Positions 6,772 to 59,236 of a stretch of 64,000 nucleotides of DNA are shown piece after piece (positions within the stretch are counted from its first letter, which is position 1; each line of letters begins with the position of its first letter). The DNA is taken from sequence record PZ534511.1. The stretch is one strand, 5' to 3'. A program made the position numbers and the translations under genes. The notes below the pieces were generated by a model. It saw nothing but the letters and a program-made list of their open reading frames with translations. It was not told the DNA's origin and did not search any database. The DNA is from a phage.

Positions 6772-6778
6772 TTTTAAA

Positions 6779-6797
6779 GGGGCTTCGGCCCCATTTT
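6779..6797 (+). terminator. hairpin GGGGC-UUCG-GCCCC + AUUUU between nrdA and nrdB (possible attenuator)
   Basis: perfect 5 bp GC stem with UUCG loop followed by T-run. Confidence 0.4.
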
Positions 6798-6809
6798 AGA
6801 GGTAGAATA

Positions 6810-7898
6810 ATGGCTGTATTTAATGCTGAGAACACCGCTCATAAAACTGGTGACTATCCGCTGTTTCTGGGACAGCAAATGGGTATGTACGACTCTATCA
6901 ACAAAAAATATCCGCAACTGTTCGAACTGTACAAAAAACAAAAAGAACAAGACTGGGCAGAGGATGAAGTGGATTTGTCGCAATCTATTTCAGATTTTGT
7001 AACATGCTCCAAGTCAACTTATGATGTAATGGTGCAGACCTTGATGTGGCAATGGGAGGCTGATAGCGTTGCGGCAAGATCGATCATCTGCCTCTTTTCA
7101 CCATTCATCACTAATAGTGAGCTTTTCACTCTATTGATGAAACAGTCAGAGATTGAAGTTCTTCACGCACTAACTTACTCAGAGATTGTTAGACAATGCC
7201 TCCCCAATGCCCGTGAGATTATAGAAGAGATTCAGGAAAACCAAAACGTTCTGAGCAGATCTGGCGTTATTGTCAAATACATGCAAGAGCTTGAGGTTAT
7301 TGGTGCAAAATACCGACTGGATCCTTCTAGTGTTGAAGAAGATATTGTGCGGAAATGCATTCTTAGAGCGCTTTTTGCACTTTTAGCTCTGGAAAGTATT
7401 GAGTTTATTGCAAGTTTTGCATGCACTTTCGCAGTAGCTGAACAGGGTATTTTTGTTCAGGTGGCACAGCTTGTTCAAAAAATCATGCTTGACGAAATGC
7501 TACATTCGAAAGGTGATTTTGCCATCATTGATATCCTGCTTAACGATCCAGCATGGGAGAAAAGCTTCCTGGAGATAAAAGGGGAGTTAAAAGAGATTCT
7601 TGATGAAGTACGAACCAAGGAGTACGGTTGGAGCGACTATATTTTCAGCGAAGGAAGAGCGATTATAGGCCTTAACTCACCGTTGCTTAAAGAATGGGTT
7701 GACTATAACTGCTCACCGATTTATGATTACTACGATATCGACAAAGACTTTGTGCCGCCAACAAAGGACCCGCTACCGTTTATGCAGGTGTGGATGAAAC
7801 CTTCATTGCAACAGACGGCGAACCAAGAAATGTCGAACACTGACTACCGAGTCAACACAACTGTTAACGACGCTGAAGAAGAAATTTGGGAGTTTTAA
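6810..7898 (+). CDS. nrdB: ribonucleotide reductase class I small subunit
   Basis: adjacent to nrdA; ferritin-like helices with E/H-rich motifs; start moved to ATG with GAGG RBS. Confidence 0.85.
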   Translation: MAVFNAENTAHKTGDYPLFLGQQMGMYDSINKKYPQLFELYKKQKEQDWAEDEVDLSQSISDFVTCSKSTYDVMVQTLMWQWEADSVAARSIICLFSPFITNSELFTLLMKQSEIEVLHALTYSEIVRQCLPNAREIIEEIQENQNVLSRSGVIVKYMQELEVIGAKYRLDPSSVEEDIVRKCILRALFALLALESIEFIASFACTFAVAEQGIFVQVAQLVQKIMLDEMLHSKGDFAIIDILLNDPAWEKSFLEIKGELKEILDEVRTKEYGWSDYIFSEGRAIIGLNSPLLKEWVDYNCSPIYDYYDIDKDFVPPTKDPLPFMQVWMKPSLQQTANQEMSNTDYRVNTTVNDAEEEIWEF

Positions 7899-7901
7899 TA
7901 C

Positions 7902-8180
7902 ATGAGCTGTGAAAAATCTTTTTTCTTTATTATTTACGGTAAAGATAACTGCCCACATTGTGTAAGAGCAAAAGAATTTGCAGTCAGTAAAGGTCTGCCT
8001 TTTGTATATAAGACACTTGGCGAGGGTTACACAAAAGAAGAGCTTATTGAGAAGTGCAGTCCAATCGTACCCAGAACGTTGCCGCAGATCTTCTTAGAAA
8101 GTAATCTTGAAAGTGCCCATATAGGCGGTGCCGATGATTTCATCTCTTTTGTTAAGAATGGTTTTGGAGAGAAAAAGTGA
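7902..8180 (+). CDS. glutaredoxin/NrdH-like redoxin
   Basis: 92 aa, CPHC active-site motif, sits between RNR genes. Confidence 0.6.
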   Translation: MSCEKSFFFIIYGKDNCPHCVRAKEFAVSKGLPFVYKTLGEGYTKEELIEKCSPIVPRTLPQIFLESNLESAHIGGADDFISFVKNGFGEKK

Positions 8181-10300
8181 AAGTTGTAAAACGGGACGGT
8201 AGAGAAGAGGTCTATAACGGAATTAAGGTGATCAAGGCGGCAGAGTCCGCCTTACTTGAGTCTGGACATACTGAAGAAGAAGCTTACCGGATCGCCTGCG
8301 CGGTTAATGAAGTTGTTGCTAACAATCTACCAACCGACCAGTGCACGATCTCTGTAAAAAATATCCATATCCTTGTTGAAGACGCTCTTATGGATATGGG
8401 TTTAAAATGTGCAGCCAGAGAATACATCCAGTATAGGCAGACAAGAGATAATAACAGAGAGGCAGGTGGAAAACTGCTTGCAGATATTAGTGGCTTCTTG
8501 GATCGCACTTGTGATGAATTTACAAAAGAAAACGCAAATAAGCCTACCAATCATGTACACACTCATCGTGACCTGCTTGCAGGCATCCTTAGCAAACACC
8601 TTGCATCAACACAGATCCTGCCAGACCGTGTCTCAGAAGAGCACAATAAAGGCTTCATCCATGTGCATGATCTTGACTATTTGATCAGTCCGTTAACAAA
8701 CTGTTGTTTGGTAAATTATCCAGATATGTTGGAAAACGGATTCAACATTGGTAACGCCCATGTCAGTAAGCCGAAGTCAATAGGGGTTGCAACAACAATC
8801 CTTAGCCAAATCTCTAGTGCAGTAGCTAGTGCTCAATATGGAGGTCAGACTATGAGCCATATTGATCATTATCTGGCACAGTATGCTGAAGCGACCTATG
8901 AGAAGAACCTTAAATTTTGCCAGGAACATTGGTTGCCAGATGCTGAGACTGTTGCAATGCAAATGACAGATAAAGACGTATTTGACAGCATGCAGACTTT
9001 ACTCTATCAAATCAATACGTTAACTTCTGTCAACGGGCAAACTCCATTCATCACACTAAGTTTAGGACTGGATACCTCGGTCTTTGGTAGAATGATTACC
9101 AAAAATTACTTGAAAGTCCACAAAATGGGTCTTGGTGAAGAACGGATCACACCTGTGTTCCCTAAAGTGCTGTTCTTCCTAGAAGAGGGTGTCAACATGA
9201 ACCCTGGAGATCCTAACTATGATTTGAAAAGATTGGCCCTGGAATGCTCTGCAGAGCGGATTTATCCTGACTTTGTTTCTGTTCCACTAAATCGTAAAGT
9301 GACAGGCTCGACAGATGGTAAAGTAACAAGCATGGGTTGCCGGAGTTTTCTTAGCAAATACAATGACTTGGAAACAGGCGAGGAGAAATACCTTGGCAGA
9401 TTTAACTTAGGCGTTGTTAGCCTTAACCTGCCAATGATTGCGGCAAAAGCTAAAACGGAAGGTGTTGATTTCTTTGCAGTTCTTGACGAATACCTGGATC
9501 TTGCATACGAGGCTCACCTTGTAAGGGTTAACCGTCTAAAAGGAACAAAGGCAGGGCAGAACCCTATCATGTGGTGTGAAGGCGCTCTTGCTCGCCTGGA
9601 TCCTGAAGAGAGTATTGATAAACTCTTCTATGAAGGGTACGCTTCCATCAGTATTGGGTATATTGGTGTGTATGAAACCTGTCAGATTTTGGGCAGGGAG
9701 GGTGACAAGGCTTTAGCTCTTGGAATACTTCAGCACATGAGAGATGCTTGTGAGCGATACAAGAAGGAAAGTAGACTAGCGTTTAGCTTGTACGGCACCC
9801 CTTCTGAGAGTCTATGCTATAAAGCTGCAACCTGTCTGGATCGTGAATATCCTGAAGTGTTGAAGCACGAGCATGAATATCTCACCAACAGTTTCCATCA
9901 GCCAGTATGGATCAATAGCTCTCCTTTTGATAAGTGGAAGTATGAGGAAGGTTTTGCTATGATCTCCTCTGGTGGAAACATCGGATATGTAGAGACACCA
10001 AATCTGAAAAACAACTTAGATGCTTTAGAAGCTCTTGTTGACTTCGGGTATAAACACATTATGTATTTTGGTATTAACCAACCTGTGGATAAATGTCTTA
10101 AGTGTGGTTTCTCTGGGGAGTTCAGTGCAACAGCTAAAGGCTTTGTATGCCCAGAGTGTGGAAACCATGAAGAGGGAACGATCAGTGTAATTCGACGTGT
10201 GTCCGGATACCTTTCCAGCCCTAACTCCCGTCCTTACAATAAAGGTAAGCAAGCGGAAGTTATCGAGCGAGTTAAGCACTATGGAAGTTGTAGTTGCTGA
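8177..10300 (+). CDS. nrdD: anaerobic ribonucleoside-triphosphate reductase (class III)
   Basis: 707 aa; C-terminal Zn ribbon CLKCG...CPECG and glycyl-radical motif RRVSGYL. Confidence 0.9.
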   Translation: MKVVKRDGREEVYNGIKVIKAAESALLESGHTEEEAYRIACAVNEVVANNLPTDQCTISVKNIHILVEDALMDMGLKCAAREYIQYRQTRDNNREAGGKLLADISGFLDRTCDEFTKENANKPTNHVHTHRDLLAGILSKHLASTQILPDRVSEEHNKGFIHVHDLDYLISPLTNCCLVNYPDMLENGFNIGNAHVSKPKSIGVATTILSQISSAVASAQYGGQTMSHIDHYLAQYAEATYEKNLKFCQEHWLPDAETVAMQMTDKDVFDSMQTLLYQINTLTSVNGQTPFITLSLGLDTSVFGRMITKNYLKVHKMGLGEERITPVFPKVLFFLEEGVNMNPGDPNYDLKRLALECSAERIYPDFVSVPLNRKVTGSTDGKVTSMGCRSFLSKYNDLETGEEKYLGRFNLGVVSLNLPMIAAKAKTEGVDFFAVLDEYLDLAYEAHLVRVNRLKGTKAGQNPIMWCEGALARLDPEESIDKLFYEGYASISIGYIGVYETCQILGREGDKALALGILQHMRDACERYKKESRLAFSLYGTPSESLCYKAATCLDREYPEVLKHEHEYLTNSFHQPVWINSSPFDKWKYEEGFAMISSGGNIGYVETPNLKNNLDALEALVDFGYKHIMYFGINQPVDKCLKCGFSGEFSATAKGFVCPECGNHEEGTISVIRRVSGYLSSPNSRPYNKGKQAEVIERVKHYGSCSC

Positions 10301-10480: not shown

Positions 10481-10950
10481 ACATTGCCGGATACACAGAA
10501 ATATCTTACACCGAAGGGCCAGGTATTAGAACTGCCTTGTGGGTATCTGGGTGCCCACACGCTTGCCCTGGTTGCTTTAATCAGGCATTTTGGTCAAAAG
10601 ATAAGGGGAGGAAGTTCACTGAAGAAGACTTGCAAAAAATCTTGTCAGATTTAGATAACCCGTCTGTGTGCGGTATCTCTCTACTGGGTGGAGAACCCTT
10701 AGCATACTATAATGAGCCAGATATTATTAGCCTGATGGAGAAAATTAAGGAAAAATTTGGTGACAAGAAAACTATTCTTGTATATACTGGGTTCACATTT
10801 GACCATATCTCTAGTGATGTTCTTAAACTGGCTGATATCATCATTGACGGTAAGTATGTAAAAGATTTACCAACCAAGAAACCGTTCCGAGGCAGTGATA
10901 ACCAAAGAATGTTTAAAAAAGTATCAGACGGTTGGGTTCAGGTAGACTAG
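10477..10950 (+). CDS. nrdG: anaerobic RNR activating protein (radical SAM)
   Basis: CPHACPGC radical-SAM cysteine motif; directly downstream of nrdD. Confidence 0.85.
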   Translation: MNIAGYTEISYTEGPGIRTALWVSGCPHACPGCFNQAFWSKDKGRKFTEEDLQKILSDLDNPSVCGISLLGGEPLAYYNEPDIISLMEKIKEKFGDKKTILVYTGFTFDHISSDVLKLADIIIDGKYVKDLPTKKPFRGSDNQRMFKKVSDGWVQVD

Positions 10951-10953
10951 TTG

Positions 10954-10983
10954 TTGACAAAGCTTTGTTGAGTTGGTTATAAT
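10954..10983 (+). promoter_or_regulatory. sigma70-like promoter (TTGACA-18-TATAAT)
   Basis: consensus -35 and -10 hexamers. Confidence 0.6.
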
Positions 10984-11012
10984 TGCCGTAATGAAAGCAG
11001 AGGAGGTGCCAA

Positions 11013-11126
11013 ATGGCTAAAAAAGCCTTGAAGAAGGCGTACAAGAAAGAGATTGCGCTTGAGCTTAAGAAAAAACACAAGCGTGAAAAGAAACATCATG
11101 AAGATGAAGAGGGGGTGCAACAGTGA
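11013..11126 (+). CDS. 37-aa lysine-rich micro-protein (below ORF-track cut-off)
   Basis: AGGAGGT RBS; MAKKALKKAYKK...; stop overlaps next GTG start. Confidence 0.4.
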   Translation: MAKKALKKAYKKEIALELKKKHKREKKHHEDEEGVQQ

Positions 11127-11473
11127 CACAAGAACGTATCGATTTGGCTAATAAGTTTGTAGATCTCATTTTGCCACGGTTAGTTACTCAACATGCAGAC
11201 GCTATTTCCACTAATCTTGATGGCTTACGCCTAATGCTGAATCGCACAGATGACCCTCGTATTCGGGCTGATTTAGAAGCCTCTGCCAACAAACTGGAAA
11301 AGTTTTTGCAAGTAGACACGCAAGAAGCCTTGCACAAGATTATGGTAGAGGGTCTCTCTAAAGAATTTACCATTAAAGAGCTTAAGGAGCTGATCCACCA
11401 AGAAGAGATGAATATCCGAGTTCAGGCTGTTGCAAGCAGTATGGAAGCGGCTATCGAAAAACTGTTGCAGTAA
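11123..11473 (+). CDS. hypothetical protein
   Basis: ORF, GTG start coupled to upstream micro-ORF. Confidence 0.45.
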   Translation: MTQERIDLANKFVDLILPRLVTQHADAISTNLDGLRLMLNRTDDPRIRADLEASANKLEKFLQVDTQEALHKIMVEGLSKEFTIKELKELIHQEEMNIRVQAVASSMEAAIEKLLQ

Positions 11474-43947: not shown

Positions 43948-44009
43948 TTTTCAGATCTCCTTATACAAAAATGCCCCACCATTTCGGGCAGGGCTATGTT
44001 AACTAGATG

Positions 44010-44588
44010 TTAGAAGTATTCATAGAGGTATCCATCGGGAGCTGGAATTTTTTCATGAATGTAGTAACCAACATATATTCCGGTTTCTCTGCTGCAAGAG
44101 TTGTGGGATACCCACTCTTTAAGAACGTTGCCATTCATGTCCAACCTCCTTACATTTTTGCACCGTCTACCGCTGGTGCTTCTATGTAACAAAATATCCT
44201 CTGTCTGCTTGTCTTTATTTTCTCCCCAGGTCGTTAAACGGATATTATCAAAAGAGTACCCTTTGAAATCATCTATCCTGTCACAAGAAGGCTTTTTCCT
44301 TTTGTCGTATCCGCTGGCTACCCACTGATCATACAACTCTTTGTAACCGTTCAGGTATAGCCACTCCTTAAACTCTTTTTTGGTGTAAGTCGGAGGAGGG
44401 TGACCTCTTTGCTTGCTGTTGCACTTTTGAGTCTTGTACAACACACGTATTACACCTTTTTCTGAAGAGTCTTTAGCAAATTGGTCAGCCTCCCTGCTGG
44501 CCTTCTTACAGCACTCTTTGCACGTTGATTTGTTGCTGGTATAGAAGTCGGAGGCCTCCTTGTCCTCCCCACAACGTTTGCATTTCAT
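44010..44588 (-). CDS. zinc-finger protein with degenerate HNH_3-like segment
   Basis: N-terminal CKRCG...CKECC; RIDDFKGYSFDNIRLTTWGEN resembles HNH_3 core but lacks the first His. Confidence 0.35.
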   Translation of the reverse strand: MKCKRCGEDKEASDFYTSNKSTCKECCKKASREADQFAKDSSEKGVIRVLYKTQKCNSKQRGHPPPTYTKKEFKEWLYLNGYKELYDQWVASGYDKRKKPSCDRIDDFKGYSFDNIRLTTWGENKDKQTEDILLHRSTSGRRCKNVRRLDMNGNVLKEWVSHNSCSRETGIYVGYYIHEKIPAPDGYLYEYF

Positions 44589-44596
44589 AACTGACC

Positions 44597-45823
44597 TTAG
44601 AAAGGGATCGAGTCATCGAACTCATACTGCGCCGGATTCTGATCCATCGGGTCATCTTCCTCATCATTTACAGGAGGAGCGTCTATAGTGTTTTGCTGTG
44701 GAGCAGCTTCCTGCTTGGCAGCTTGAGGTTCTTGATGGTCAGTGGACCCAGCACCGTTCTTGATCCAATCGTACAACGGCTCAGCCAGATTAGTCAAGAC
44801 ATCTTTTGCTTCTGCAGTAATTGCCGCTGCAAAATCCTCAACTTTCGTTTTCTTGTCAATACGGCGACAAGCGTTCAACACCGCATTACCGACACTGGCA
44901 CCTACTTCATCTTCGGTTCGGTTGGTGGCTTGAGCATACTCTTTCTTAAGCTCAATGGTGACTACGTGCAGTGTTTTAGCCACACCTAGTGGGTCGTCTA
45001 CCTTAAACCCGCGATCCAGGATGATTTGCAACGCGTTGATGCTATGTCCCGTCTCCACACCAATAGGGTCGTAAGAGGATTTACGCTTGCCACCAGAGCC
45101 TTGAGTGCCGTTCTCTGCCTTAGGGGGATAGGCTTTGAAACCACTGATAATGTTTCCGGTGTCTTTGTCAACAATGGCTGCAACACGACCACCTACCACC
45201 AGGTCTTTAAGCTGCTCATCAGTTACAACCATAGCACCTTCGCCAATCTTGTGGTCATTAACAGTAACCACGTTGCCAACAATCTGAGTCACATCGCCAT
45301 AGATGCGTAAAACGTCCTGATTGGCATTCTGCTGAGGTTTCTGCTTCTGGCCTTGTGATTGTGCACCTTGTTGCTGTTTTTGCTGCTGAGTCGCTGCTGG
45401 AGCCTCTCCTGCACCCAGCTTGACCATCTTAGCCAGTGAGCCTTTGTAATAGGTCTTACCGTTATGCTCGTTTGCCTTCAAAGGGATATTTACGATCCAT
45501 CCCGGCGTTACGGTTTCCCACTTGTCATCAATTTTAACAGAGACAGAGTCTTGATGACCAGGTTTAAGCAGCTTATCACCCATGCTGATCCAAACTTCTT
45601 CACCACCTTGAAGCAGGTTATCAGAGGAATCCAGTTCAGAAATCAGTAAAGAGATGGTGTGGCTGGATTCAATTTTCTTACCTTGCCACACAGTGGTTTT
45701 AATACCTGTTGTAGGATCAGCACCTTTGATAGGCTTGATGCTGACACGTTTAATCATGCCGTGAGCCAGTAAAACAGTTTCACGCGGATTCATCGGGTTA
45801 GCGAATTGTTGAATAACGCTCAT
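44597..45823 (-). CDS. putative single-stranded DNA-binding protein
   Basis: Gln-rich linker and acidic C-terminal tail ending DDSIPF (bacterial SSB tip DDDIPF); in replication module. Confidence 0.5.
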   Translation of the reverse strand: MSVIQQFANPMNPRETVLLAHGMIKRVSIKPIKGADPTTGIKTTVWQGKKIESSHTISLLISELDSSDNLLQGGEEVWISMGDKLLKPGHQDSVSVKIDDKWETVTPGWIVNIPLKANEHNGKTYYKGSLAKMVKLGAGEAPAATQQQKQQQGAQSQGQKQKPQQNANQDVLRIYGDVTQIVGNVVTVNDHKIGEGAMVVTDEQLKDLVVGGRVAAIVDKDTGNIISGFKAYPPKAENGTQGSGGKRKSSYDPIGVETGHSINALQIILDRGFKVDDPLGVAKTLHVVTIELKKEYAQATNRTEDEVGASVGNAVLNACRRIDKKTKVEDFAAAITAEAKDVLTNLAEPLYDWIKNGAGSTDHQEPQAAKQEAAPQQNTIDAPPVNDEEDDPMDQNPAQYEFDDSIPF

Positions 45824-48671: not shown

Positions 48672-48952
48672 TGATCGGTCTCCTTCTTGTTAAGTCTGAA
48701 TACTGCAATAATAGCATTCCCAAGGTGCAGTGTCAAATCATTTCCAAGATACCACAACATTCCACGGTCATCTTTAATGAAAGGGTAACAATCTGGTGCC
48801 TTCCAGACATTGTACACTTTCCCAACCTGAAAGAAATCAGGCCCTGTTGGGATTTTGGTGCCAGGCCACACTTGAGATACCTGAACACACTCCACCTGCA
48901 TAATAACAGGAATAGTCATGGATGTAAATGTTTTTGTTGGTTCTACTACCAT
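48668..48952 (-). CDS. hypothetical protein
   Basis: internal ATG with AAAGAGGAG RBS; avoids overlap with polymerase exon 2. Confidence 0.4.
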   Translation of the reverse strand: MVVEPTKTFTSMTIPVIMQVECVQVSQVWPGTKIPTGPDFFQVGKVYNVWKAPDCYPFIKDDRGMLWYLGNDLTLHLGNAIIAVFRLNKKETDQ

Positions 48953-49001
48953 AAAAGTCTCCTCTTTGCTCAACAACACTTCCATGTGTTGATAGTTTAC
49001 A

Positions 49002-49355
49002 TTAGTGACAATCACCCCAATTACGACCACACAAGTATTCACCTGTGATCTGGAACGGGACTCCCATCATTTTAGAAGCTTGCCAGAAGCAATGCACCAC
49101 CATTTCACCCACAGGGCTCCAGATAAGTTCAAGCTTTCCGTCATCGTTCAGGATAGGATCGTACACCGTGTTTCCGTCTCTGTCAACCACTTCGTTTCCG
49201 TCCTCATCCTTGCGTGCCTTTTTGTACTTATGACCGTCGAACACATGAAGTTTGGCTTCCTGCTCTGCCTTAAATGCTTCCAATTCTTCAATTGTGTCGA
49301 AGGTGTACACAGTCTTATACTTAGGCGTGTCAGGGACCTGAAGTTGGTACTCATC
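49002..49355 (-). CDS. DNA polymerase (family A), C-terminal segment / exon 2
   Basis: begins DEYQLQV (completes motif C HDE) and ends GRNWGDCH-stop, matching family A C-terminus (Pol I ...NWDQAH); preceding ATG has no RBS. Confidence 0.6.
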   Translation of the reverse strand, partial: DEYQLQVPDTPKYKTVYTFDTIEELEAFKAEQEAKLHVFDGHKYKKARKDEDGNEVVDRDGNTVYDPILNDDGKLELIWSPVGEMVVHCFWQASKMMGVPFQITGEYLCGRNWGDCH

Positions 49356-50198
49356 CATCTGTTCAGGTAGGTCGTTAAGCTACCCCGCACCATTACGTGC
49401 ATAGCCATACAGTTTCCTGTATGGATCGGACTACCTCACTGCCTTGGTAACAAGGCACCTCCCATTTCGACCGCACTTGCTGGCCTACTCTACTCGCTTC
49501 TTCACACCAACCTGTGTTGGAGCTATGCTTTCGATAGTCTCTGAACGTTACTACCAGGTGTAGTTTTTAGAGATATGTTTCCACTGTCTTCTTTGCTTTA
49601 TAGCCCTGACGGTCTCATAAGGATATCCAAGATCCCTAATCTCGCATTGTCGTAGACCACTCTGCAACAGTTCGCAAATCTCTATTACCTCATCTTCTGT
49701 CAGCACAGCGTTGGCATTATACTCACCAACTGGCCTTACTCTGAGGTCATTATCATAGGCGTGCTTGATATTTCCACCAGGGGTGGTCCATTCCAGGTTC
49801 CAGTATGCATTGTTGTACTTATTCCCATCCTTATGGTTCACCCATGTGAGCCTTTCAGGATCCGGGTTTGATACAAAGCATTCAGCAACCAGGTGGTGGA
49901 CACCTTTTGTGCACTGCTTCCCCTCGATTAGCATGGTTACGCAAAGGTAACCTCTACCATTATCAAAACAAAACATTGTTGTATGATCACGTTTCGATAA
50001 AGGTATTGTTCCATCATCAAACACGGTATACCCGTGATAATCAGCTGTTCTAGCCATTTTAACTACACCCCTTTAGTCTTCGCTGCGGATTAGCATATTG
50101 AGCTTTTACCATACTCAGGTGTAAAAGTCAACTTAGCTTTCCCGTCAATTAAAGAGGTTATTCGACATAGATCACTCTATGAAGCCACAATGTTATTT
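49356..50198 (-). mobile_element. putative group I intron carrying an HNH homing endonuclease ORF
   Basis: interrupts polymerase exactly within motif C; exon ends in U, insertion ends in G; HNH ORF with own RBS; GC-rich structured 3' segment. Confidence 0.5.
49551..50057 (-). CDS. HNH homing endonuclease (HNH_3 type)
   Basis: LTWVNHKDGNKYNNAYWNLEW HNH_3 core; located inside polymerase insertion. Confidence 0.75.
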   Translation of the reverse strand: MARTADYHGYTVFDDGTIPLSKRDHTTMFCFDNGRGYLCVTMLIEGKQCTKGVHHLVAECFVSNPDPERLTWVNHKDGNKYNNAYWNLEWTTPGGNIKHAYDNDLRVRPVGEYNANAVLTEDEVIEICELLQSGLRQCEIRDLGYPYETVRAIKQRRQWKHISKNYTW

Positions 50199-52622
50199 AT
50201 GGTAATAGATAATACGACGGACACCTTCATCGTACCACCCACGCTTCACCATTTGGTGGTGCATGAGTATCCCAACTAAGTCACACAGCGATGCACCACC
50301 ATTCTGTTGGTATGCATTAAGTAAAGAGTGTTTAGATCGGGTCCAGATAGCATGACCATCAAAAGAGTAGATAAACTTCTTACCCGTTGCTTCCCAGAAT
50401 TTCTCCAGATCCTCTTTACGCCCCTTAAGACCAGGGTTGGCATCCCAAAGTGCATCGATTACCCTTTGTCCCAACTCTGGAGAGATGTCCAGCATATCTG
50501 CAACTTTATCTTTTTGTGCCCCGTACATAACCCCATACGTGATAGGTTTACCGTCGTTACGAGACACCTCTCTGCCTGCTACTTTTGTATATGCCTCAGC
50601 ATTGTTTTGGTGTGCGTCCCCGTTACTTACAACATCATAATACAAGCCGTTGTCGAACTCAAAGGCACCCCAAGCCCCGATAAGCTGCTCTAAGTTGGAC
50701 CCGTCAATACCGATCTGAAAGTATCCAGGAGGAACACCCCACAGACTACGCATCTCTTTACCCATAACCACTTTAGGAGATGGTTTAGGCATGTTTGCAC
50801 AAATACTGTGTTTCTGTCGTGAAGTGTTTGTTAACCCAGAACTTTTAGCAGGAAGCTTATGGTCAATCTTCAAACGTGGGTGATTAAGAAGACCAGTATC
50901 AACCTTATCCTCCTTGATTGGATCAAGGACCGATCTGCGGTTTCGCAATGATAACCACAAGACGATATCTTTAGCCATCTCTCCGTTCAATTTTTCAAGA
51001 TTCGGGCATAGGTGTCCAAACGTATCTTTCAGTTGCGGAGAAGTAATAAGTGCCCTAGCTTTTCTACGTATTTTCCCGAATACTTCCTTTTTAATCCTTT
51101 CGGAGTTAGGAAAGCTTCGGAACTTGTGCACGGTTGTCTGGAACTTAGCATCAGTTTTGTTCCAGAAGTTGATAATCAGGTCACAATACTCTGACTCTAA
51201 AAGCTCGTCCATATATGCATATACTCGTGCATCAACATCTGCATCAGGTAGAGCTTTCTTCTTGCTGTCTTTAGTTACATCCTTAGTTCTCCACATTGTC
51301 GGAAGCCAACCAGCACTGATCAGGTATCGCTTAATGTCGTCCTGGTTGCTGATTTTCATAGGTATCTTGCAGTCCGGCATTCGCTTCTGCTGTAGATCAC
51401 TTATTGCCTGATCCATTAGCTCTTTAGGTAAAGGTTGTGGTGTGGAGGTGCCCTTAATATAGCCTCTCAAGAAATCAGCCATCTTATCGGGGTCTTTGCA
51501 GCCCATCTCTTCACACCATTTTATCCCTATCTTACTGACATCTCCTGTAGAGGTAAATGCTCGCTTAGGTGGGGCTTTGAACTCTAAAGCGCTCATGTCT
51601 ACAGGGTAGCCAAGCTTATCTTTTAACCATTTCCAGCCATTATTGGAAATTGTCCCATCTTGGTTGAACGGCTTTTCAGGGAATTTAGGCCGCTGAGATA
51701 TTGATAACTCTTTTAAAGGAAGTTGAGGTTCAACACGATCAGCGATCTCTTTCATCCACGCATCACAGCGGTCACGTAAAGCAATAGCCCCGTCTATGTC
51801 GAAATACACACCCTGACGGGCCTGCAGCTCCATCAGGAAGTGCTGCAGCATGCCTCGGCGTAATGCGTTCTTCCAGGTGATCTTCTTGAACCCTTTCGGC
51901 TTCTCTTTGGCAGGATCGTACATAAAGTTCTGCATGTCAGATTTGCCGTAGAATACACCTTTTGATTCCGCTACCAGCTCTTTCCAGAGCAGCTCCTGGA
52001 TGATAACGTCCTCGAATACACGATCCACATACTTCCACAACGGAAGATCGCGCCAGTCATCAATTTGAACTTTCTGGTTACCAAGGGCGTAGCCCCATGC
52101 CATAAGGCCGTGAGGACCAACAGGCTGCATTTTCTTAGTAACCGGGTTGAATACAGAGTCCGGACAACCTTTTGGTAAAGGGCGATCAGGCCACAAAATT
52201 CGACTCATCGCCAACGTATCAAACAGGTTAACCTGGTGGTCGTTGATAGTCCCCATGCATTTAGGATCACGGAACATATCAAAATGAATACCGGATAATC
52301 TTTCCATCAGCATAAAGTCATAACTGTAGCAGTTATGGCAGTTCAAAGCTGTTGGTGACCAGTCGGAATTGCCTGTAAGCCAACCTTCCAACTCCGAAAA
52401 ATCTGCTATGCGAACTTCAAAATCTTTATAAAGAGTTTTCTTTGCCAGAATGAAGTTCTTGGCCTTTTCTATATCCTCCTCGGAGTAGTGTGTGCGGTCA
52501 TTTAGAGGAAGGAACAGCATAAAACGGTTCTTATTCAGCTCTTTAAACAGACCGCAGTGATAATAAAGATCTGGGTCTTCCAAAAGCCCAGAGGCCTCCA
52601 GATCGAAGCACCAATTACTCAT
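50199..52622 (-). CDS. DNA polymerase (family A), N-terminal segment / exon 1
   Basis: Exo I FDLEASGL; motif A-like GIDGSNLEQL; motif B-like RNDGKPITYGVMYG; ends ...RRIIYYH just before expected HDE. Confidence 0.8.
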
Positions 52623-53353
52623 ACTGTCCCCTCCTGTTTCTTCTCAGCATTCTTTCTTGCAGCTATTGCATCGTCCCTATTCTTGAAATACCCAAGGCAT
52701 TTCCTTTTACCATCTACATAAATTCTGGCTACCCATCTTTCATGGGTTTTATCCCAATTCACCCCTGAGCAACCGCTGGTATTATTATACTGCACGGCTC
52801 TTCCACTCTTGTGCGAAAAACCATTATCTTCGAAGAACTTTCTTGCCCACTCTGCCTCTTCAAAAGTTCTGTACTGGCCTAGCCAGACCCTTTCCCCTAC
52901 AGAGTCTGTGCCTTGAGCTATCCATGCATCTCTTTCTTCAGAATAGTGCACCCCGACCCTGCCAGATTTGTTGTTGCTACGAGGTATCTTGCAACTTTTC
53001 TTTTTGTTATCTGTGGGCTCGAGTAGTTGCAAATTTTGAATACTGTTATCAGCCACACCACCTGTTTCCCTTATCTCCTTGATGTGGTCAACCTCATACC
53101 CTTCCGGTACAGGGCCGTTAAACATTTCCCAGATTATGACGTGGGCACCTTTAGTGCAATGCTTTCCTAGACTAACTACAGGCCTGCCATCAGCATCTTG
53201 CCCCTTGTCAGCTCTGGAGCCTGCTGAAGTTTTAACATATCCTACACCGCTACCTGCCAGAATGTCTATCTTCCAAAAAAGATTTTGACCGTCATACTCC
53301 AGTATCTCTGACCACAGGTGGTTGGCTACACAGTGGTCTCTGAACTCGTTCAT
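52619..53353 (-). CDS. free-standing HNH endonuclease with two AP2-like DNA-binding domains
   Basis: EVDHIKE...NSIQNLQLL HNH core; two RVGVHY/SGVNWD...W.A.I...G AP2-like repeats. Confidence 0.7.
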   Translation of the reverse strand: MNEFRDHCVANHLWSEILEYDGQNLFWKIDILAGSGVGYVKTSAGSRADKGQDADGRPVVSLGKHCTKGAHVIIWEMFNGPVPEGYEVDHIKEIRETGGVADNSIQNLQLLEPTDNKKKSCKIPRSNNKSGRVGVHYSEERDAWIAQGTDSVGERVWLGQYRTFEEAEWARKFFEDNGFSHKSGRAVQYNNTSGCSGVNWDKTHERWVARIYVDGKRKCLGYFKNRDDAIAARKNAEKKQEGTV

Positions 53354-53411
53354 AAAGTGTTCTCCTTAAAGGGGAGGCGGTTGTACTACCCCTCCCACTC
53401 TTTGTTAAACA

Positions 53412-55490
53412 TTAAAAAGGTGTTTCATCATCTTCAAAACCGGGGACCGGATCAGAAGATGGATCATCGTACTGGAGGTCTTCCTGCGTGTCAACAGGCT
53501 TAATAGTAGGAGTTACAACCTTATCAGCTACAACCTTGCCCATAGGTGTTTCTACAACTGCATGCTCTTGGTCCTCAAACATGGCCTGAGGTCTCCAAAC
53601 AACCTCCCCACCTTCTCCGTCTGTAAACATCTGCATTTCTTTGTCCCAGTACCAATTACTGGCATCATGGAACTTACCTGTATGTGGGTCCATAACCAAA
53701 GTATCCGCAATACCCAATGTTTTTGCTGGACGGTTTTTAAGACCTACTAAACGGACACGACCACGAGAACGATCTACCATTTCTTCAGCCTCAACACCTA
53801 TGACTACCCAACTCAACTGTTCAAGCCCAGCCGATCCTCGCAAATTCTCTTTTCGCACAGGATACCAGAAAGGTAACGGGTTACCATCCTTGTCCTTAGG
53901 AGGCACAATCTCTGTACGTTTGAGGTGAGCGATCACTAGGATAAACACGTTAAACTGCTTACAAAACGCAGCCAGTTGGGTCATAGCCATGTCCAGCTCT
54001 TTTCGCTCATCCTTAACATTAAGCCCTGAAATTACCATGGACAGGTGATCCAGCACAATATAACGGCAATGGTACAGGCAAACCATTTGCTTAAGCTTGG
54101 TAATCAACTCGTCCACCGGAATAGATCCGAAATGTTTGAACACTTTGATTTTTCCAGCTTTTGCCCATGATTGGTGAATCTCTGCGTGTTCTTGATCAGT
54201 TAAAAACTGGCTAGGATCTTCAACAAACTCTTTAACATCAAACCCTAACTGGTTTGCATACAAGGAGTTAATTGCTTCCTCTGGGTCCTCCTCAAGATGA
54301 ATCATGCATAGACGATCATCCTCTTCGTAATCATCAGCCTTTGGACATGTCGGGTCCATTAGGTATCTTGCAATACAGTGTTCCAGTTTTTTAGCTACAG
54401 TTGTTTTACCGCCTCCTGATGGACCTGTAAGCATTACAAGTGTCCCTTTGTGCAAGCCTTTCAGCATTTTTTGCAGTTTTGGGAACTCTGCGCTGATATC
54501 TACCCCGTTGGAAGTCTTTTTCCGCAAAGATTCGATAGAGAAGTCTTCTAAATCCGACACAGCATCCGGCACATACTTAACAGGATGCCGGAACATGTTT
54601 ACAATATCTTCCAGCTTTTTAGCCTTCAGCATGTCACGGATATCTTTTACACCATCAGGGTCGTTTACCTCGCCAGGATATTCCACGTGGTAAACGTTAT
54701 CAGCCATCAAAAATGCTGCGATATTATGTGTGGCTTCAACACCTTTGATAACGTGTTTTTGCTTCTCTATCTCGTTAGCTGCATCGTTGTCCATTGCAAG
54801 GACCACTGTTCCGTAGCTACGGATAAATTTCTCATTGTTTGCAAAAGTATCTACTGCGTTTGCACATCCACAGTTAATTCCAACAAAAGGTAGGCAGGGT
54901 TTTCCTGCCAGATCACCACCGTTGATAACTGCGTCGATCCCGTCCTGGACCTCTTTAGCCCACTGCTTCACTTTTGCCGGGGCTTTAGCGTTGGTGAGAA
55001 TCCCTTTTACTTGTATCTGATATGCAGCCTGCCATGCTGCAATAACATCACCTTCTCCCTCACAAACGTTAATCTGCTTACGGTTGTTGGAAGATGCACA
55101 CAGCTTTTGACCAAACATCTGGGAGTTAGCCTTCACTATGCCTACTACAGACCAGTGCCCTTTCTGCTCTTTCGGCTTAGTCCAGTCACGCTTTTTGAAA
55201 CCGGACAGATTTCCGTAGCGGTCGTAATATGGGAAATATGTTGCAGTGACTGTCACACCATCTTCTTGGGACAATGCTGATCGCACACCAAAATATTGTG
55301 CAGCCATCAGACCGATATTTTGTTGTGGGACAGGGACAATTTTAGTATTTTCTAAAACAGTCTCTACAGTTTCAACCTCTTTTTCATCACGATAGTCTCG
55401 TTTCATACTACCCCCACTTTTGTATCTTGTTGCAACCGGGTTTGGCTCACCGAAACGGTTGTATGCAGATGCCATAAATTTACTTCCCAT
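53412..55490 (-). CDS. primase-helicase (T7 gp4-like: TOPRIM primase + DnaB-family helicase)
   Basis: TOPRIM VCEGEGD and MDNDAANE; Walker A GPSGGGKTT; acidic C-terminal tail ending ETPF. Confidence 0.8.
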   Translation of the reverse strand: MGSKFMASAYNRFGEPNPVATRYKSGGSMKRDYRDEKEVETVETVLENTKIVPVPQQNIGLMAAQYFGVRSALSQEDGVTVTATYFPYYDRYGNLSGFKKRDWTKPKEQKGHWSVVGIVKANSQMFGQKLCASSNNRKQINVCEGEGDVIAAWQAAYQIQVKGILTNAKAPAKVKQWAKEVQDGIDAVINGGDLAGKPCLPFVGINCGCANAVDTFANNEKFIRSYGTVVLAMDNDAANEIEKQKHVIKGVEATHNIAAFLMADNVYHVEYPGEVNDPDGVKDIRDMLKAKKLEDIVNMFRHPVKYVPDAVSDLEDFSIESLRKKTSNGVDISAEFPKLQKMLKGLHKGTLVMLTGPSGGGKTTVAKKLEHCIARYLMDPTCPKADDYEEDDRLCMIHLEEDPEEAINSLYANQLGFDVKEFVEDPSQFLTDQEHAEIHQSWAKAGKIKVFKHFGSIPVDELITKLKQMVCLYHCRYIVLDHLSMVISGLNVKDERKELDMAMTQLAAFCKQFNVFILVIAHLKRTEIVPPKDKDGNPLPFWYPVRKENLRGSAGLEQLSWVVIGVEAEEMVDRSRGRVRLVGLKNRPAKTLGIADTLVMDPHTGKFHDASNWYWDKEMQMFTDGEGGEVVWRPQAMFEDQEHAVVETPMGKVVADKVVTPTIKPVDTQEDLQYDDPSSDPVPGFEDDETPF

Positions 55491-57189: not shown

Positions 57190-57533
57190 CAGAAACCTCC
57201 CACTTCTTCAGCAAATGCAGCTGCTGTCGTCGCTGCATCCAGATAGGACTCTAGTTCACGGGCTGCACGTTTGTAAATTGAGTGTCGCAAATCGTTTGGC
57301 AGTTGGTGGAAGTCCACCTCTTCACCGTTGTGGTAAACATGCACATCGGTAATTTGTCTAAATCCGTAATAGTCAACATCAGAATCACGGCACTCCGGGT
57401 CTGGCAACTGGACAACTGCCTGAGCTTCTACAGTAAACATATCGTCAAGTTCGAAATCGATTTCAAAAGTGTATGGTTTATAACGTTTCATCATTTGATT
57501 GTACTCTTTATTGATCAGACATATCTTTCGCAA
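57189..57533 (-). CDS. hypothetical protein
   Basis: ORF. Confidence 0.45.
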   Translation of the reverse strand: MRKICLINKEYNQMMKRYKPYTFEIDFELDDMFTVEAQAVVQLPDPECRDSDVDYYGFRQITDVHVYHNGEEVDFHQLPNDLRHSIYKRAARELESYLDAATTAAAFAEEVGGF

Positions 57534-58833
57534 TTAAGGCCGGGGTAAGTTTGTAATAACGGAAGCCACCACCACCTTGCCAGTTTACAGACTTAGAAAT
57601 ACCACCTTGATCTTCGCCATCGATCACTTTTTCCAAGCGCGGAATAATATGGGTATGACAATGATCACCCAGTTCGATCAAGATCCAACGTCTTTTCATT
57701 TTGTGAGCTACAGCAGCAGTAGTTCCCGAACCACCGAATGAATCCAATACCAAATCGCCTTCTCGCGTACACATCTCGAAAATCCGCTTCAAAAGCGCTT
57801 CTGGTTTTTTACCATTTTTGAAACTAACGCCACCTTCATTTGCTATTCCATTCCAACTAATATCTGTCCAAACATCAGTTATTAGTTCCGCAGGCTGCAT
57901 CTCACCGTCAATTTCCAAAAGCCTGTTGGAGTAAAAGACCATTTGCCTACCATTTGCGATATAAAATCCTTCAACATCCTCATTTGGATGTACATAAACC
58001 TTATCCCTGTCTTTCTTTGACTTCTCGATAGTTTCTTTTCTCTTTATTTTAGCACCACCACCAATTGCAACAGATTGAAATACACGTTCTGCATTATCAA
58101 TTGCGAATTGTGCTAATTCATCATCGAATGTGTCAGGCAGTTTTTTCTTGGCTTCTTTTGCATCTTTATAGCCATTGGCCTTTGCAAACGCATCGGCAAT
58201 ACCACACCACGTCCAATTTTTATAATGGTCATCCGGGTTTAATAGGTATTTGTTATATCCTGTATCATACCCTTTAGGTATATAGATTTTGTTAAGCGGT
58301 TTCTGGTTGCGATCTTTTGCATATACAAGCAAAAAGTTTGCTGTGGAGAAAACTGTGGCTCCTGTTGCCTTAAATCCTGAAGGGGAATTTGTGGTCATCG
58401 AGATGGTATTTAACTGATTTGCACGACCAAAAATCTCGTCCATCAAAACTTTTAAATACGCCATTTCGCAACCATCTAAGTGAACGAATATTACCCCATC
58501 ATCACTCAGAAGATTACGAATTATTTCTAACCTATCCCTCATTAAGCCCAGCCAAATGGAATGCTCCAGGCTATCATCGTAGTGCTCAAAAGCCCTCCCG
58601 GTATTGAATGGTGGGTCTATGTAAACACACTTCACTTTGCATGCATACTCTTGCTCTAGCGCCTTCAATGCTAATAAGTTATCTCCAAAAATCAGTTTAT
58701 TATCAAAAATATCGTTTTCGGTCACCTTCTGGCTGTGGTAAGATTTGCTAGAATCTTCTAACAAAATGTGCGGCTCTAACTTTTTGCGCTCGTTTTTACC
58801 TATCCAGGTAAGTTCTAATTTGGTTTTACTCAT
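57508..58833 (-). CDS. DNA methyltransferase (beta-class N6-adenine or N4-cytosine)
   Basis: motif IV IDPPF before motif I FGGSGTT (beta-class order). Confidence 0.7.
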   Translation of the reverse strand: MSKTKLELTWIGKNERKKLEPHILLEDSSKSYHSQKVTENDIFDNKLIFGDNLLALKALEQEYACKVKCVYIDPPFNTGRAFEHYDDSLEHSIWLGLMRDRLEIIRNLLSDDGVIFVHLDGCEMAYLKVLMDEIFGRANQLNTISMTTNSPSGFKATGATVFSTANFLLVYAKDRNQKPLNKIYIPKGYDTGYNKYLLNPDDHYKNWTWCGIADAFAKANGYKDAKEAKKKLPDTFDDELAQFAIDNAERVFQSVAIGGGAKIKRKETIEKSKKDRDKVYVHPNEDVEGFYIANGRQMVFYSNRLLEIDGEMQPAELITDVWTDISWNGIANEGGVSFKNGKKPEALLKRIFEMCTREGDLVLDSFGGSGTTAAVAHKMKRRWILIELGDHCHTHIIPRLEKVIDGEDQGGISKSVNWQGGGGFRYYKLTPALIAKDMSDQ

Positions 58834-58894
58834 CGTTTGGTGCTCTCCTTAGTTTTTGTGGGGAGGAGTGCCTCCCCTTTATACTCACACCTTA

Positions 58895-59236
58895 CTACTC
58901 AAGGTCTTCAGAGTCAAGCTCAAAAAGAATCAAACTGTGCATGCCTGCAGAGAGATTAACACACCCTGCAACAATAAGGGTTTGATAGTAAGGTCCAGCA
59001 CCCTCAATGTCTTCGTTAAAATCTACAACAAGGTAGTCACCTTTGTTAAAGGTGTATTTGTCCGATGTAAACGCAAAACCTGCCCAGTCTCCTACTGCAG
59101 GATCTTTATCAGTCACCTTTGTTAGCAGTAGATCTTTTTCACGAGATCTTTTAGTAAAATCGTGAATCACAACATTCTTCTCTTCAGGAGTCGGATTGCC
59201 ACACACGTAGTTAACGATATTTCTCCACAAACTCAT
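58895..59236 (-). CDS. hypothetical protein
   Basis: ORF with AGAGGGG RBS. Confidence 0.45.
   Translation of the reverse strand: MSLWRNIVNYVCGNPTPEEKNVVIHDFTKRSREKDLLLTKVTDKDPAVGDWAGFAFTSDKYTFNKGDYLVVDFNEDIEGAGPYYQTLIVAGCVNLSAGMHSLILFELDSEDLE

Follow-up and report, generated by a model that had tools for sequence, protein, structure and literature searches.

HNH-AP2 proteins constitute a recognised family of homing endonucleases whose genes often lie beside polymerase genes (PMC10448857). According to the citation given there, the family, which spans phages, cyanobacteria and ciliates, is that of Magnani et al. 2004. Here we analyse a putative member of it, encoded by a free-standing open reading frame (ORF) at 52619-53353 on the minus strand of the phage sequence record PZ534511.1, between the genes for a primase-helicase and a family A, T7-like DNA polymerase (pol). 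The window is the whole stretch of 64,000 nucleotides (nt) that was analysed. The ORF resembles other HNH-AP2 genes in its N-terminal HNH and C-terminal AP2 parts and in being phage-borne, free-standing and placed, as is frequent in this family, by a DNA polymerase gene. It differs from them in having two AP2 repeats and a site of its own, the primase-helicase/pol junction of Vequintavirinae.

Several other described systems are close to this locus. Intronless homing, with co-conversion of flanking markers, is established for the free-standing seg and mob genes of phage T4 (review PMC2988022). Our ORF resembles T4 mobA-E, which are promoter-less HNH cassettes located between essential genes, expressed from the host operon and directed at the adjacent essential gene (PMC2988022). 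MobE targets nrdB; for the present ORF we infer the targeting of pol. The Mob proteins carry a C-terminal DNA-binding region different from the AP2 repeats. Zinc-finger domains similar to the Mob class have been described in the HNH-3 genes of ICP1 (PMC10448857). With I-HmuI and I-HmuII (SPO1/SP82) and I-PfoP3I (PMC3428280) the ORF shares an HNH-type nuclease, in its case putatively, aimed at codons for catalytic motifs of family A/T7-like polymerases, but the genes of those enzymes lie within group I introns, and their DNA-binding modules are of other kinds. The counterpart of the I-HmuI-type intron enzymes in the window is a separate ORF at 49551-50057. CB7_54 comes from the same phage subfamily and has the same relative position as our ORF, the comparison being one of position only; its phage has two HNH-bearing introns in the same polymerase gene, and these were shown to splice (PMC7344957). 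The IPA-HNH genes of ICP1 also combine HNH with AP2 and are enriched beside polymerase genes (PMC10448857). Since IPA-HNH proteins are defined as too divergent for the Pfam HNH_3 profile (PMC10448857), membership of our ORF in that group is ruled out by its HNH_3 match at E 5e-12.

The family has been known since 2004, near-identical genes are annotated at this very site, and our findings pose no challenge to current understanding. Our contribution is the comparative case for homing and a specific, testable prediction of the target. We consider it probable (roughly 0.78), judging from sequence comparisons, that the ORF is free-standing and encodes a functional homing endonuclease with an HNH_3 domain and tandem AP2 repeats, and that the gene spreads in Vequintavirinae by intronless homing into the primase-helicase/pol junction. 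A divergence spike at the start of pol, replacement tracts, a recombinant patch, a history discordant with that of the neighbouring genes, mosaic flanks and independent assortment from the pol intron are the classical signatures of homing with co-conversion.

Sporadic distribution at a fixed site

The region is ~97% identical to Vequintavirus (rV5-like) coliphages, e.g. FFH2 and WalterGehring, and the window is evidently that of an rV5-like Vequintavirus coliphage. The gene is present in 10 of 120 related GenBank records, always at the same site. These ten records represent eight distinct phages, namely JES2013, O157 typing phage 4, navn, WalterGehring, FFH2, HdK5, C2 and C5. The remaining 110 records have the flanks joined into an empty site, which shortens the locus by 731 bp; in the 12 empty-site genomes compared at the junction, no remnant of the gene is seen. 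The original prediction had placed a free-standing gene of the homing-endonuclease type between primase-helicase and polymerase, had proposed comparison with relatives lacking the insertion as a check, and had taken universal conservation at this position, without empty-site relatives, as speaking against it. With 110 of 120 sites empty the gene is anything but universal, and both the empty-site relatives and the domains described below support the prediction on this point. Sporadic presence combined with precise empty sites is what is expected of a homing gene.

Five of the cultured-phage copies (WalterGehring bas51_0076, FFH2 ORF207, JES2013 ORF211, navn_182 and the copy in O157 typing phage 4) have 97.5-98.4% amino acid (aa) identity to the window ORF and agree with it in site and in the overlap with pol. 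Near-identical genes (97-98% over the 10 GenBank records) are labelled 'putative homing endonuclease' (as is bas51_0076), 'HNH endonuclease' or 'AP2 domain protein' (as is the copy in O157 typing phage 4). Compared with these copies, the window allele is an outlier, since its synonymous divergence (dS) is ~0.12 to them versus ~0.02 among them. The window C-terminus, ...KKQEGTV, is common to the metagenomic loci L008 and P0002. The shared C-terminus suggests recombination between endonuclease alleles.

Beyond this group the general family is very large, with 15,089 cluster representatives matching at E ≤ 1e-3 in a representative library of 1.84 billion proteins. Only one of them scored better than E 1e-35; it represents the ORF's own 50%-identity cluster and is 98% identical. 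To our knowledge, this cluster has no characterised member. Among the matches listed, the other relatives from cultured phages are at most 40% identical and occupy other sites. A scan of IMG/VR for close relatives of the ORF found none, and a pol-based scan of IMG/VR gave seven loci. Sixteen UNVERIFIED 'Campylobacter phage' records (MG0656xx; A147, C2, C5 and others) are 91-98% identical to E. coli Vequintaviruses across the region; the five of these that were examined are classified as Vequintavirus. The host label of the sixteen records looks doubtful.

Replacement tracts at the start of the polymerase gene

To locate divergence associated with the insert, we binned alignments of seven carriers and 12 non-carriers reaching to 2.4 kb on both sides. 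The divergence between carriers and non-carriers is 0.269 in pol nt 1-45 (52578-52622, minus strand) and 0.024-0.077 in all other bins; within carriers, the same 45 nt diverge by 0.018. These codons 1-15, which include the ExoI pair D7-x-E9, constitute a carrier-specific allele and the minimal co-converted tract, and they are the putative target or immunity region. Individual empty-site phages differ from the window at 9-15 of the 45 nt. Beyond, over nt 46-1000, the difference is ~2-4% for the closest empty-site phages and up to 6-17% for FV3, IMGVR_173923 and MaxTheCat. Per-genome Fisher tests for the closest empty-site phages gave p values of 1e-9 to 1e-11, the lowest being 3e-11. At codons 3-5 there are two alleles, ATGTGGTCG versus AATTGGTGC, with ATG TGG TCG becoming AAT TGG TGC in carriers. 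Codon 5 is TGC in all carriers and TCG or TCT in empty-site genomes (AAT or AGC in two of them), and everything 5' of the pol ATG is replaced in carriers.

Residues D7 and E9 align with D5 and E7 of T7 gp5 (T7 DNA polymerase match in the PDB, E 2e-15), which we take to be the ExoI catalytic pair; this places the insert 18 nt upstream of codons for the active site. Conserved sequence of this kind is what homing endonucleases typically exploit. The start region of pol, 18 nt upstream of the ExoI Asp-x-Glu codons, is accordingly the likely target of the endonuclease as predicted from the alignments.

Tracts are also seen in two more diverged lineages represented by metagenome loci, of which L007, L008 and L009 are occupied and L015-L017 are empty. 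L008 and L016 differ by 45% in pol nt 1-45 and by 0% over nt 46-400. Between L007 and L015, divergence is raised for ~100 nt of pol beside the insert, and L009 and L017 diverge by 34-39% for ~400 nt of pol and by 8-9% thereafter. On the upstream side of the insert there is little or no replacement tract. The L008 copy itself is recombinant. As resolved in 60-nt windows, it is of the L007 type (92-98%) except for a patch of at most ~200 nt across the gene/pol junction, which is of the window type (88-95%). Carrier-specific polymorphisms or co-conversion tracts, another mark of homing genes, are found directly beside the insert.

Discordant history and selection

The nuclease does not share the history of its neighbours. 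Between L009 and the window the nuclease is 81% identical, whereas pol and primase-helicase are 56% and 55% identical, respectively; the site is empty in L017, which belongs to the same lineage as L009. For L007 and L008, identity to the window is 64-69% for the nuclease and ~75% for pol. Such discordance with neighbouring genes, a further property of homing genes, points to horizontal spread of the nuclease. The flanks are mosaic, with carriers no closer to the window than non-carriers, and the best match to the window at 54200-53601 is A147, which has an empty site. We also considered carriers to be a single clade with vertical inheritance; the mosaic identity table and the discordance of L009 led us to reject this. 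Moreover, the gene and the pol intron described below assort independently: JES2013 has the gene without the intron, navn has the gene and a short intron, and the window and FFH2 have the gene together with an intron carrying an HNH gene.

When the window copy is compared with those of other Vequintavirus phages, the ratio of nonsynonymous to synonymous divergence (dN/dS) is 0.06-0.10; comparison with the distant copies, at dS 1.5-2.5, gives 0.06-0.15. Together with full-length homologues down to 63% identity, dN/dS values of 0.06-0.15 place the ORF well beyond chance. The endonuclease gene is thus under strong purifying selection even though most relatives lack it, and the low dN/dS, combined with the invariant catalytic residues, indicates an active protein.

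Domain architecture

The ORF (52619-53353, minus strand, stop included) starts with ATG and encodes 244 aa. The HNH core reported in the original prediction, with the strings quoted there, is found in the protein (...YEVDHIKEIRETGGVADNSIQNLQLL...). Pfam places HNH_3 (PF13392) at residues 68-116 (53006-53152, minus strand) with E 5.2e-12 and 45.7 bits, above the cut-off of 24.8, whereas the general HNH profile PF01844 falls just short (20.4 versus 21.4). PHROG_99, 'HNH endonuclease', matches with E 1e-51. None of the residues D89, H90, D102, N103, N107 and N116 varies among eight homologues, the most distant of which is 63% identical. We assign to the ORF a catalytic Asp-His dyad and downstream Asn by analogy with HNH_3/I-HmuI-type enzymes; the roles of D89-H90, D102-N103, N107 and N116 are presumably the same as in those enzymes.

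The two AP2-like repeats that had been suggested are real, as indicated by four lines of evidence: their mutual BLASTP alignment, AP2 matches of the single repeats, the strand/helix pattern of a structure model and Foldseek. Repeat 1 (residues ~130-176; 52826-52966, minus strand) and repeat 2 (residues ~192-240; 52634-52780, minus strand) align with each other at BLASTP E 4e-6. In the whole protein, Pfam AP2 (PF00847) is found at residues 194-223 with E 1.7e-6 and 28.7 bits, under the gathering cut-off of 33.3; scanned singly, repeats 1 and 2 match it at E 0.003 and 0.0003. An AlphaFold2 model built from eight sequences shows strands 135-138, 143-149 and 155-161 followed by helix 164-176 in repeat 1 (predicted local distance difference test, pLDDT, ~60-70) and strands 198-201, 206-213 and 216-223 followed by helix 226-243 in repeat 2 (pLDDT 82-90). 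The AP2 fold, a three-stranded antiparallel sheet on a C-terminal helix, is thus predicted to occur twice. The top Foldseek match of the model is the double-AP2 plant protein WRINKLED1 (WRI1) bound to DNA (7wq5; E 8e-4, probability 1.00, 148 columns), and further matches are TEM1 AP2 (root-mean-square deviation 1.5 Å over 40 columns) and the AP2 domains of PF14_0633 and AtERF1. Searching the PDB with the ORF profile likewise gave WRI1 (E 0.0085), and ERF096 was matched weakly by repeat 1. No HNH endonuclease structure was recovered from the PDB up to E = 10 with the eight-sequence profile or up to E = 1 with the single sequence, nor by Foldseek with the model.

The ORF lies between two complete reading frames and, with no Rfam family reaching its gathering score anywhere in the window, is not intron-encoded. 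The scan for promoters and terminators around it gave no more than the chance expectation, which fits a promoter-less cassette, and tblastn found no paralogue of either HNH gene elsewhere in the window.

Junctions and translation of the polymerase

In empty-site phages the primase-helicase gene is followed by a 58-nt spacer containing a GC-rich hairpin and the Shine-Dalgarno motif AAGGAGAAC, then by TGTAT and the pol ATG. Carriers keep the spacer and AAGGAGAAC (53359-53367 in the window, minus strand), which now precede the ATG of the endonuclease, and the insert ends in ...AGGAGGGGACAGT|ATGAGT. As compared at the junctions of 19 genomes, the left boundary of the insert is directly after the motif. 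The same motif therefore serves pol in empty-site phages and the endonuclease in the window, the spacing from AAGGAG to ATG being 8 nt both ways. The distance from this ribosome-binding motif to the pol ATG has become 735-736 nt in carriers, as against 5 nt in 11 of the 12 empty-site genomes and 9 nt in the remaining one. In carriers, a new and strong Shine-Dalgarno sequence for pol, AGGAGGGG (52628-52635, minus strand), lies within the last codons of the endonuclease, 5 nt before the pol ATG, and is kept in all carriers including the distant L008 and L009. The cassette has thus taken over the translation-initiation region of pol and provides a replacement for it, so that translation of pol continues.

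The overlap between the stop codon of the ORF and the start of the polymerase, reported in the original prediction, is real and is read as ATGA (52619-52622): on the minus strand, ...ACA GTA TGA is followed in the other frame by ATG AGT..., so that the TGA at 52621-52619 overlaps the ATG at 52622-52620. The proposal that this overlap suggests a recent insertion is not supported. The same 4-nt overlap is present in L007, L008 and L009, and both the overlap and the embedded Shine-Dalgarno sequence are kept in copies at 64-81% aa identity. In addition, the window copy is ~3-4% from other GenBank copies at the nt level (dS ~0.12), no less than adjacent core genes, and the site is occupied in three deep lineages. 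We interpret the overlap as a stable design feature, combining translational coupling with an embedded Shine-Dalgarno sequence for pol, rather than as a scar of recency. The association of the gene with the primase-helicase/pol site is old, and it is gain and loss that recur.

The hairpin, GGGAGGGG-N10-CCGCCTCCCC (53371-53396, minus strand), lies in the spacer at 53354-53411 and is retained upstream of the insert; its predicted folding energy is -23 kcal/mol (z -2.3). Conservation in the region is highest over the 45 nt upstream of the junction, which diverge by 0.7%. In other lineages the stem is kept with a different sequence and a similar AGTACA loop. The hairpin could act in termination or attenuation, in RNA processing or as a binding site for a protein. 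The upstream primase-helicase gene itself (53412-55490, minus strand) matches PHROG_239 at E 6e-160 and has DnaB_C and AAA_25 domains.

Proposed homing and alternative explanations

Based on these observations, homing at this locus might proceed as follows. During mixed infection the AP2 repeats would bind the empty-site allele around the pol start, that is, the stretch encoding the N-terminus and the ExoI Asp-x-Glu pair. The G/C-rich arms of the spacer hairpin may add to the binding, and we propose their contribution because AP2 domains favour G/C-rich DNA (PMC10448857). The HNH domain would then nick or cut near the bound site, and repair from the co-infecting carrier genome would copy in the cassette along with 45-400 nt of 5' pol sequence. 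Carriers would owe their immunity to the altered codons 3-5 and to the insert, by which all sequence 5' of the pol ATG is replaced. I-HmuI-type enzymes nick DNA, and by analogy it is plausible that the present nuclease also makes a nick rather than a double-strand break. Since the shortest tract is only ~45 nt, unlike what would be left by the far-cutting enzymes of T4, the cleavage site may be at or near the insertion point.

It is tempting to go one step further and speculate that this free-standing enzyme acts like an intron-encoded one, recognising and cutting the DNA of the pol start and ExoI codons no more than a few tens of bp from where its own gene is inserted, that repeated attacks have driven an arms race there, and that translation of pol has been rewired in the process. 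We offer this extended scenario tentatively and hold it to be the less probable outcome. An arms race, if true, would account for the finding that variability within pol is highest in codons 1-15 even in phages without the element, including aa changes beside the catalytic Asp and Glu. If the rewiring is true, the new Shine-Dalgarno sequence and the start-stop coupling would make precise loss of the cassette costly.

A number of observations weigh against homing as the explanation or against the proposed target. Even among non-carriers, pol nt 1-45 show unusual variability (0.141), so that this stretch could be a general hotspot of recombination or variation. The empty-site genome IMGVR_10279 has a mostly carrier-type allele, with five differences in 45 nt (p = 0.08), and strictly fixed differences between carriers and non-carriers are confined to pol nt 8-9 (codon 3, ATG to AAT). 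Ordinary homologous recombination, and not repair induced by a nuclease, could have left the tracts. In T4, the cuts made by free-standing enzymes are often hundreds of bp or more away from the gene of the enzyme, and the true cleavage site may therefore lie outside the 45-nt tract. In the structure model, residues 1-132 have pLDDT below 50 and are unreliable, so the HNH assignment, and with it the presumed beta-beta-alpha-metal fold of the nuclease, rests on the profile match and the invariant residues. Finally, the HdK5 copy (L023 8601-9334) has a 1-nt deletion at nt 464 of the gene (GGGAAAGGG to GGTGAAA-GG), which gives two ORFs. Because the HdK5 primase-helicase is also annotated in several pieces, a sequencing error is possible, the alternative being decay.

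Alternatively, the gene could be an old resident that is now passive, present in an ancestor of Vequintavirinae, repeatedly lost since and shuffled by ordinary high-frequency recombination with no homing today. Three diverged lineages indeed have homologues at this site, all flanks are mosaic, pol nt 1-45 vary among non-carriers too, and the GenBank copies are 2-4% apart in nt, like core genes, so that no very recent sweep is visible. We nevertheless regard a passive resident as unlikely. Purifying selection and invariant catalytic residues in an optional gene are hard to explain without activity, the nuclease of L009, at 81% identity amid neighbours of 55-56%, requires horizontal transfer into that lineage, and in three lineages the tracts begin exactly at the insert, as expected of break repair. 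Another alternative is a nuclease domesticated for a phage function, such as excluding rival pol alleles, processing replication intermediates or tuning pol translation, in which case the gene would not be a selfish element in the first place. The low dN/dS, the coupling to pol translation and the provision of a Shine-Dalgarno sequence for pol agree with domestication, which is documented for HNH proteins, e.g. the terminase-associated HNH of HK97 (PMC10448857). However, the gene is absent from ~92% of close relatives with intact replication modules and hence is dispensable, and marker exclusion is mechanistically the same process as homing; we consider domestication more improbable still than passive residence. 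Least probable of all, to the point of being hard to credit, is an AP2-based DNA-binding regulator, for example a CasPR-like repressor, whose HNH domain is dead or irrelevant. The structure model is at its best in the AP2 repeats, and phage AP2-domain proteins can be sequence-specific transcriptional silencers (bioRxiv 10.64898/2026.02.23.707548), but a regulator of this type is at odds with the strong HNH_3 match and with the lack of any variation in the D-H/N/N residues. Moreover, CasPRs combine AP2 with CapR domains and lack a nuclease domain (bioRxiv 10.64898/2026.02.23.707548), and nothing in our analysis links the ORF protein to a defence target.

Cultured pairs of carrier and non-carrier phages, such as Bas51 WalterGehring and Bas52 RudolfGeigy of the BASEL collection, are a convenient system for measuring the specificity of a tandem-AP2 homing endonuclease. 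The same pairs could show whether such elements bias the inheritance of pol alleles in therapeutic phage cocktails.

The candidate polymerase intron and its HNH gene

The polymerase gene downstream of the ORF is itself interrupted. Exon 1 (50199-52622, minus strand), which matches PHROG_17, PHROG_8888 and T7 DNA polymerase in the PDB, ends in ...Y-Y-H. Exon 2 (49002-49355, minus strand) matches positions 185-295 of PHROG_8888 at E 1.3e-58 and is contiguous with exon 1 in JES2013 and inoa. An 843-nt insert (49356-50198, minus strand) parts H from D of pol motif C (YYH|DEY), the splice point being placed by alignment to the uninterrupted pol gene of JES2013. RF00028, the group I intron family, matches 49406-50208 over its full length with 29.4 bits and E 3.5e-5, below the gathering score of 50. 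At the gathering threshold no Rfam family passes in the whole window, and the relaxed-threshold scan, with RF00028 as its only intron-like match, covered 48900-50400 only, downstream of the free-standing ORF. As the intron is seen at the relaxed threshold only, we report it as a group I intron candidate backed by comparative boundaries.

A loop of the insert contains a 168-aa HNH ORF at 49551-50057 (PHROG_59, E 1.5e-36), at a distance of 2.6-3.8 kb from the HNH-AP2 gene, which bears out the earlier observation that the module carries two genes of the homing-endonuclease type within 4 kb. Among relatives, pol may lack an intron, contain one of 261 nt or, in 31 of 119 records, contain the 843-nt intron together with its HNH gene. 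Across lineages with 57-75% identity in pol, the nuclease of the intron retains 90-93%, so it is mobile as well. T4 MobE mobilises I-TevIII in trans. A similar role of the free-standing gene, mobilising the pol intron in trans, was considered and rejected, since the two elements assort independently and tracts of at most 400 nt fall short of the intron 2.4 kb away.

The main bearing of these results is on annotation and phylogenetics. Because the endonuclease gene, the 5' end of pol and the intron have their own histories, the endonuclease gene, the first ~45-400 nt of pol and the pol intron should be masked when pol is used as a marker for Vequintavirinae.

Other insertions in the replication module

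Genes of this kind cluster by polymerase, ribonucleotide reductase and terminase genes (PMC10448857; PMC7344957). In the window, an EndoVII-family ORF at 44010-44588 (minus strand) encodes a Cys-rich protein of 192 aa that matches PHROG_1035 at E 6e-33 and has no Pfam match. The 600-nt segment containing it (44001-44600) is matched in navn, WalterGehring, JES2013, C2, A147, inoa and rV5_ev168 and in none of the other eleven genomes compared. In WalterGehring the gene is annotated 'putative homing endonuclease'; it seems to be another optional nuclease gene, the third one, at a distance of no more than 9.3 kb from the HNH-AP2 gene. Three of the six homing endonucleases annotated in WalterGehring (118.3 kb of the record covered) fall within these 9.3 kb, and the others are in the terminase and nrdD loci.

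Relatives have additional insertions. A paralogous HNH_3 + AP2 gene of 223 aa, ~33% identical, is found in L032 (Phage 203; 10750-11421) and L007 (2200-2871), in both cases between the genes for a Dcm-like methyltransferase and the primase-helicase; it is absent from the window, where these two genes overlap (55480-55490). Long insertions lengthen or split primase-helicase and pol in L008 (893-4936), L009 (1944-4934 and 5735-9443), L014 and L016-L018, the insertion-bearing primase-helicases being 1347 and 996 aa long versus 692 aa in the window. L007 (1-14) and the pol of L033 (JEP1; 5225-8623) are further insertion loci, and the pol genes of distant relatives are also interrupted near residues 608, 672-700 and 809. 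Adjacent in L007 is a gene for an 848-aa PIF1-type helicase with Intein_splicing and LAGLIDADG domains, the only intein domains on record here. The replication module has been invaded repeatedly and at different points. The proposal that it is a hotspot for selfish elements is supported by the intron with its HNH gene, by the optional EndoVII-like gene and by the extra insertions of relatives; we find it reasonable, and it agrees with the published clustering.

Presence/absence polymorphism also affects a 441-aa N6-adenine methyltransferase-like ORF at 57508-58833 (minus strand), since segments of ~57200-59000 are unmatched in navn, C2 and MaxTheCat.

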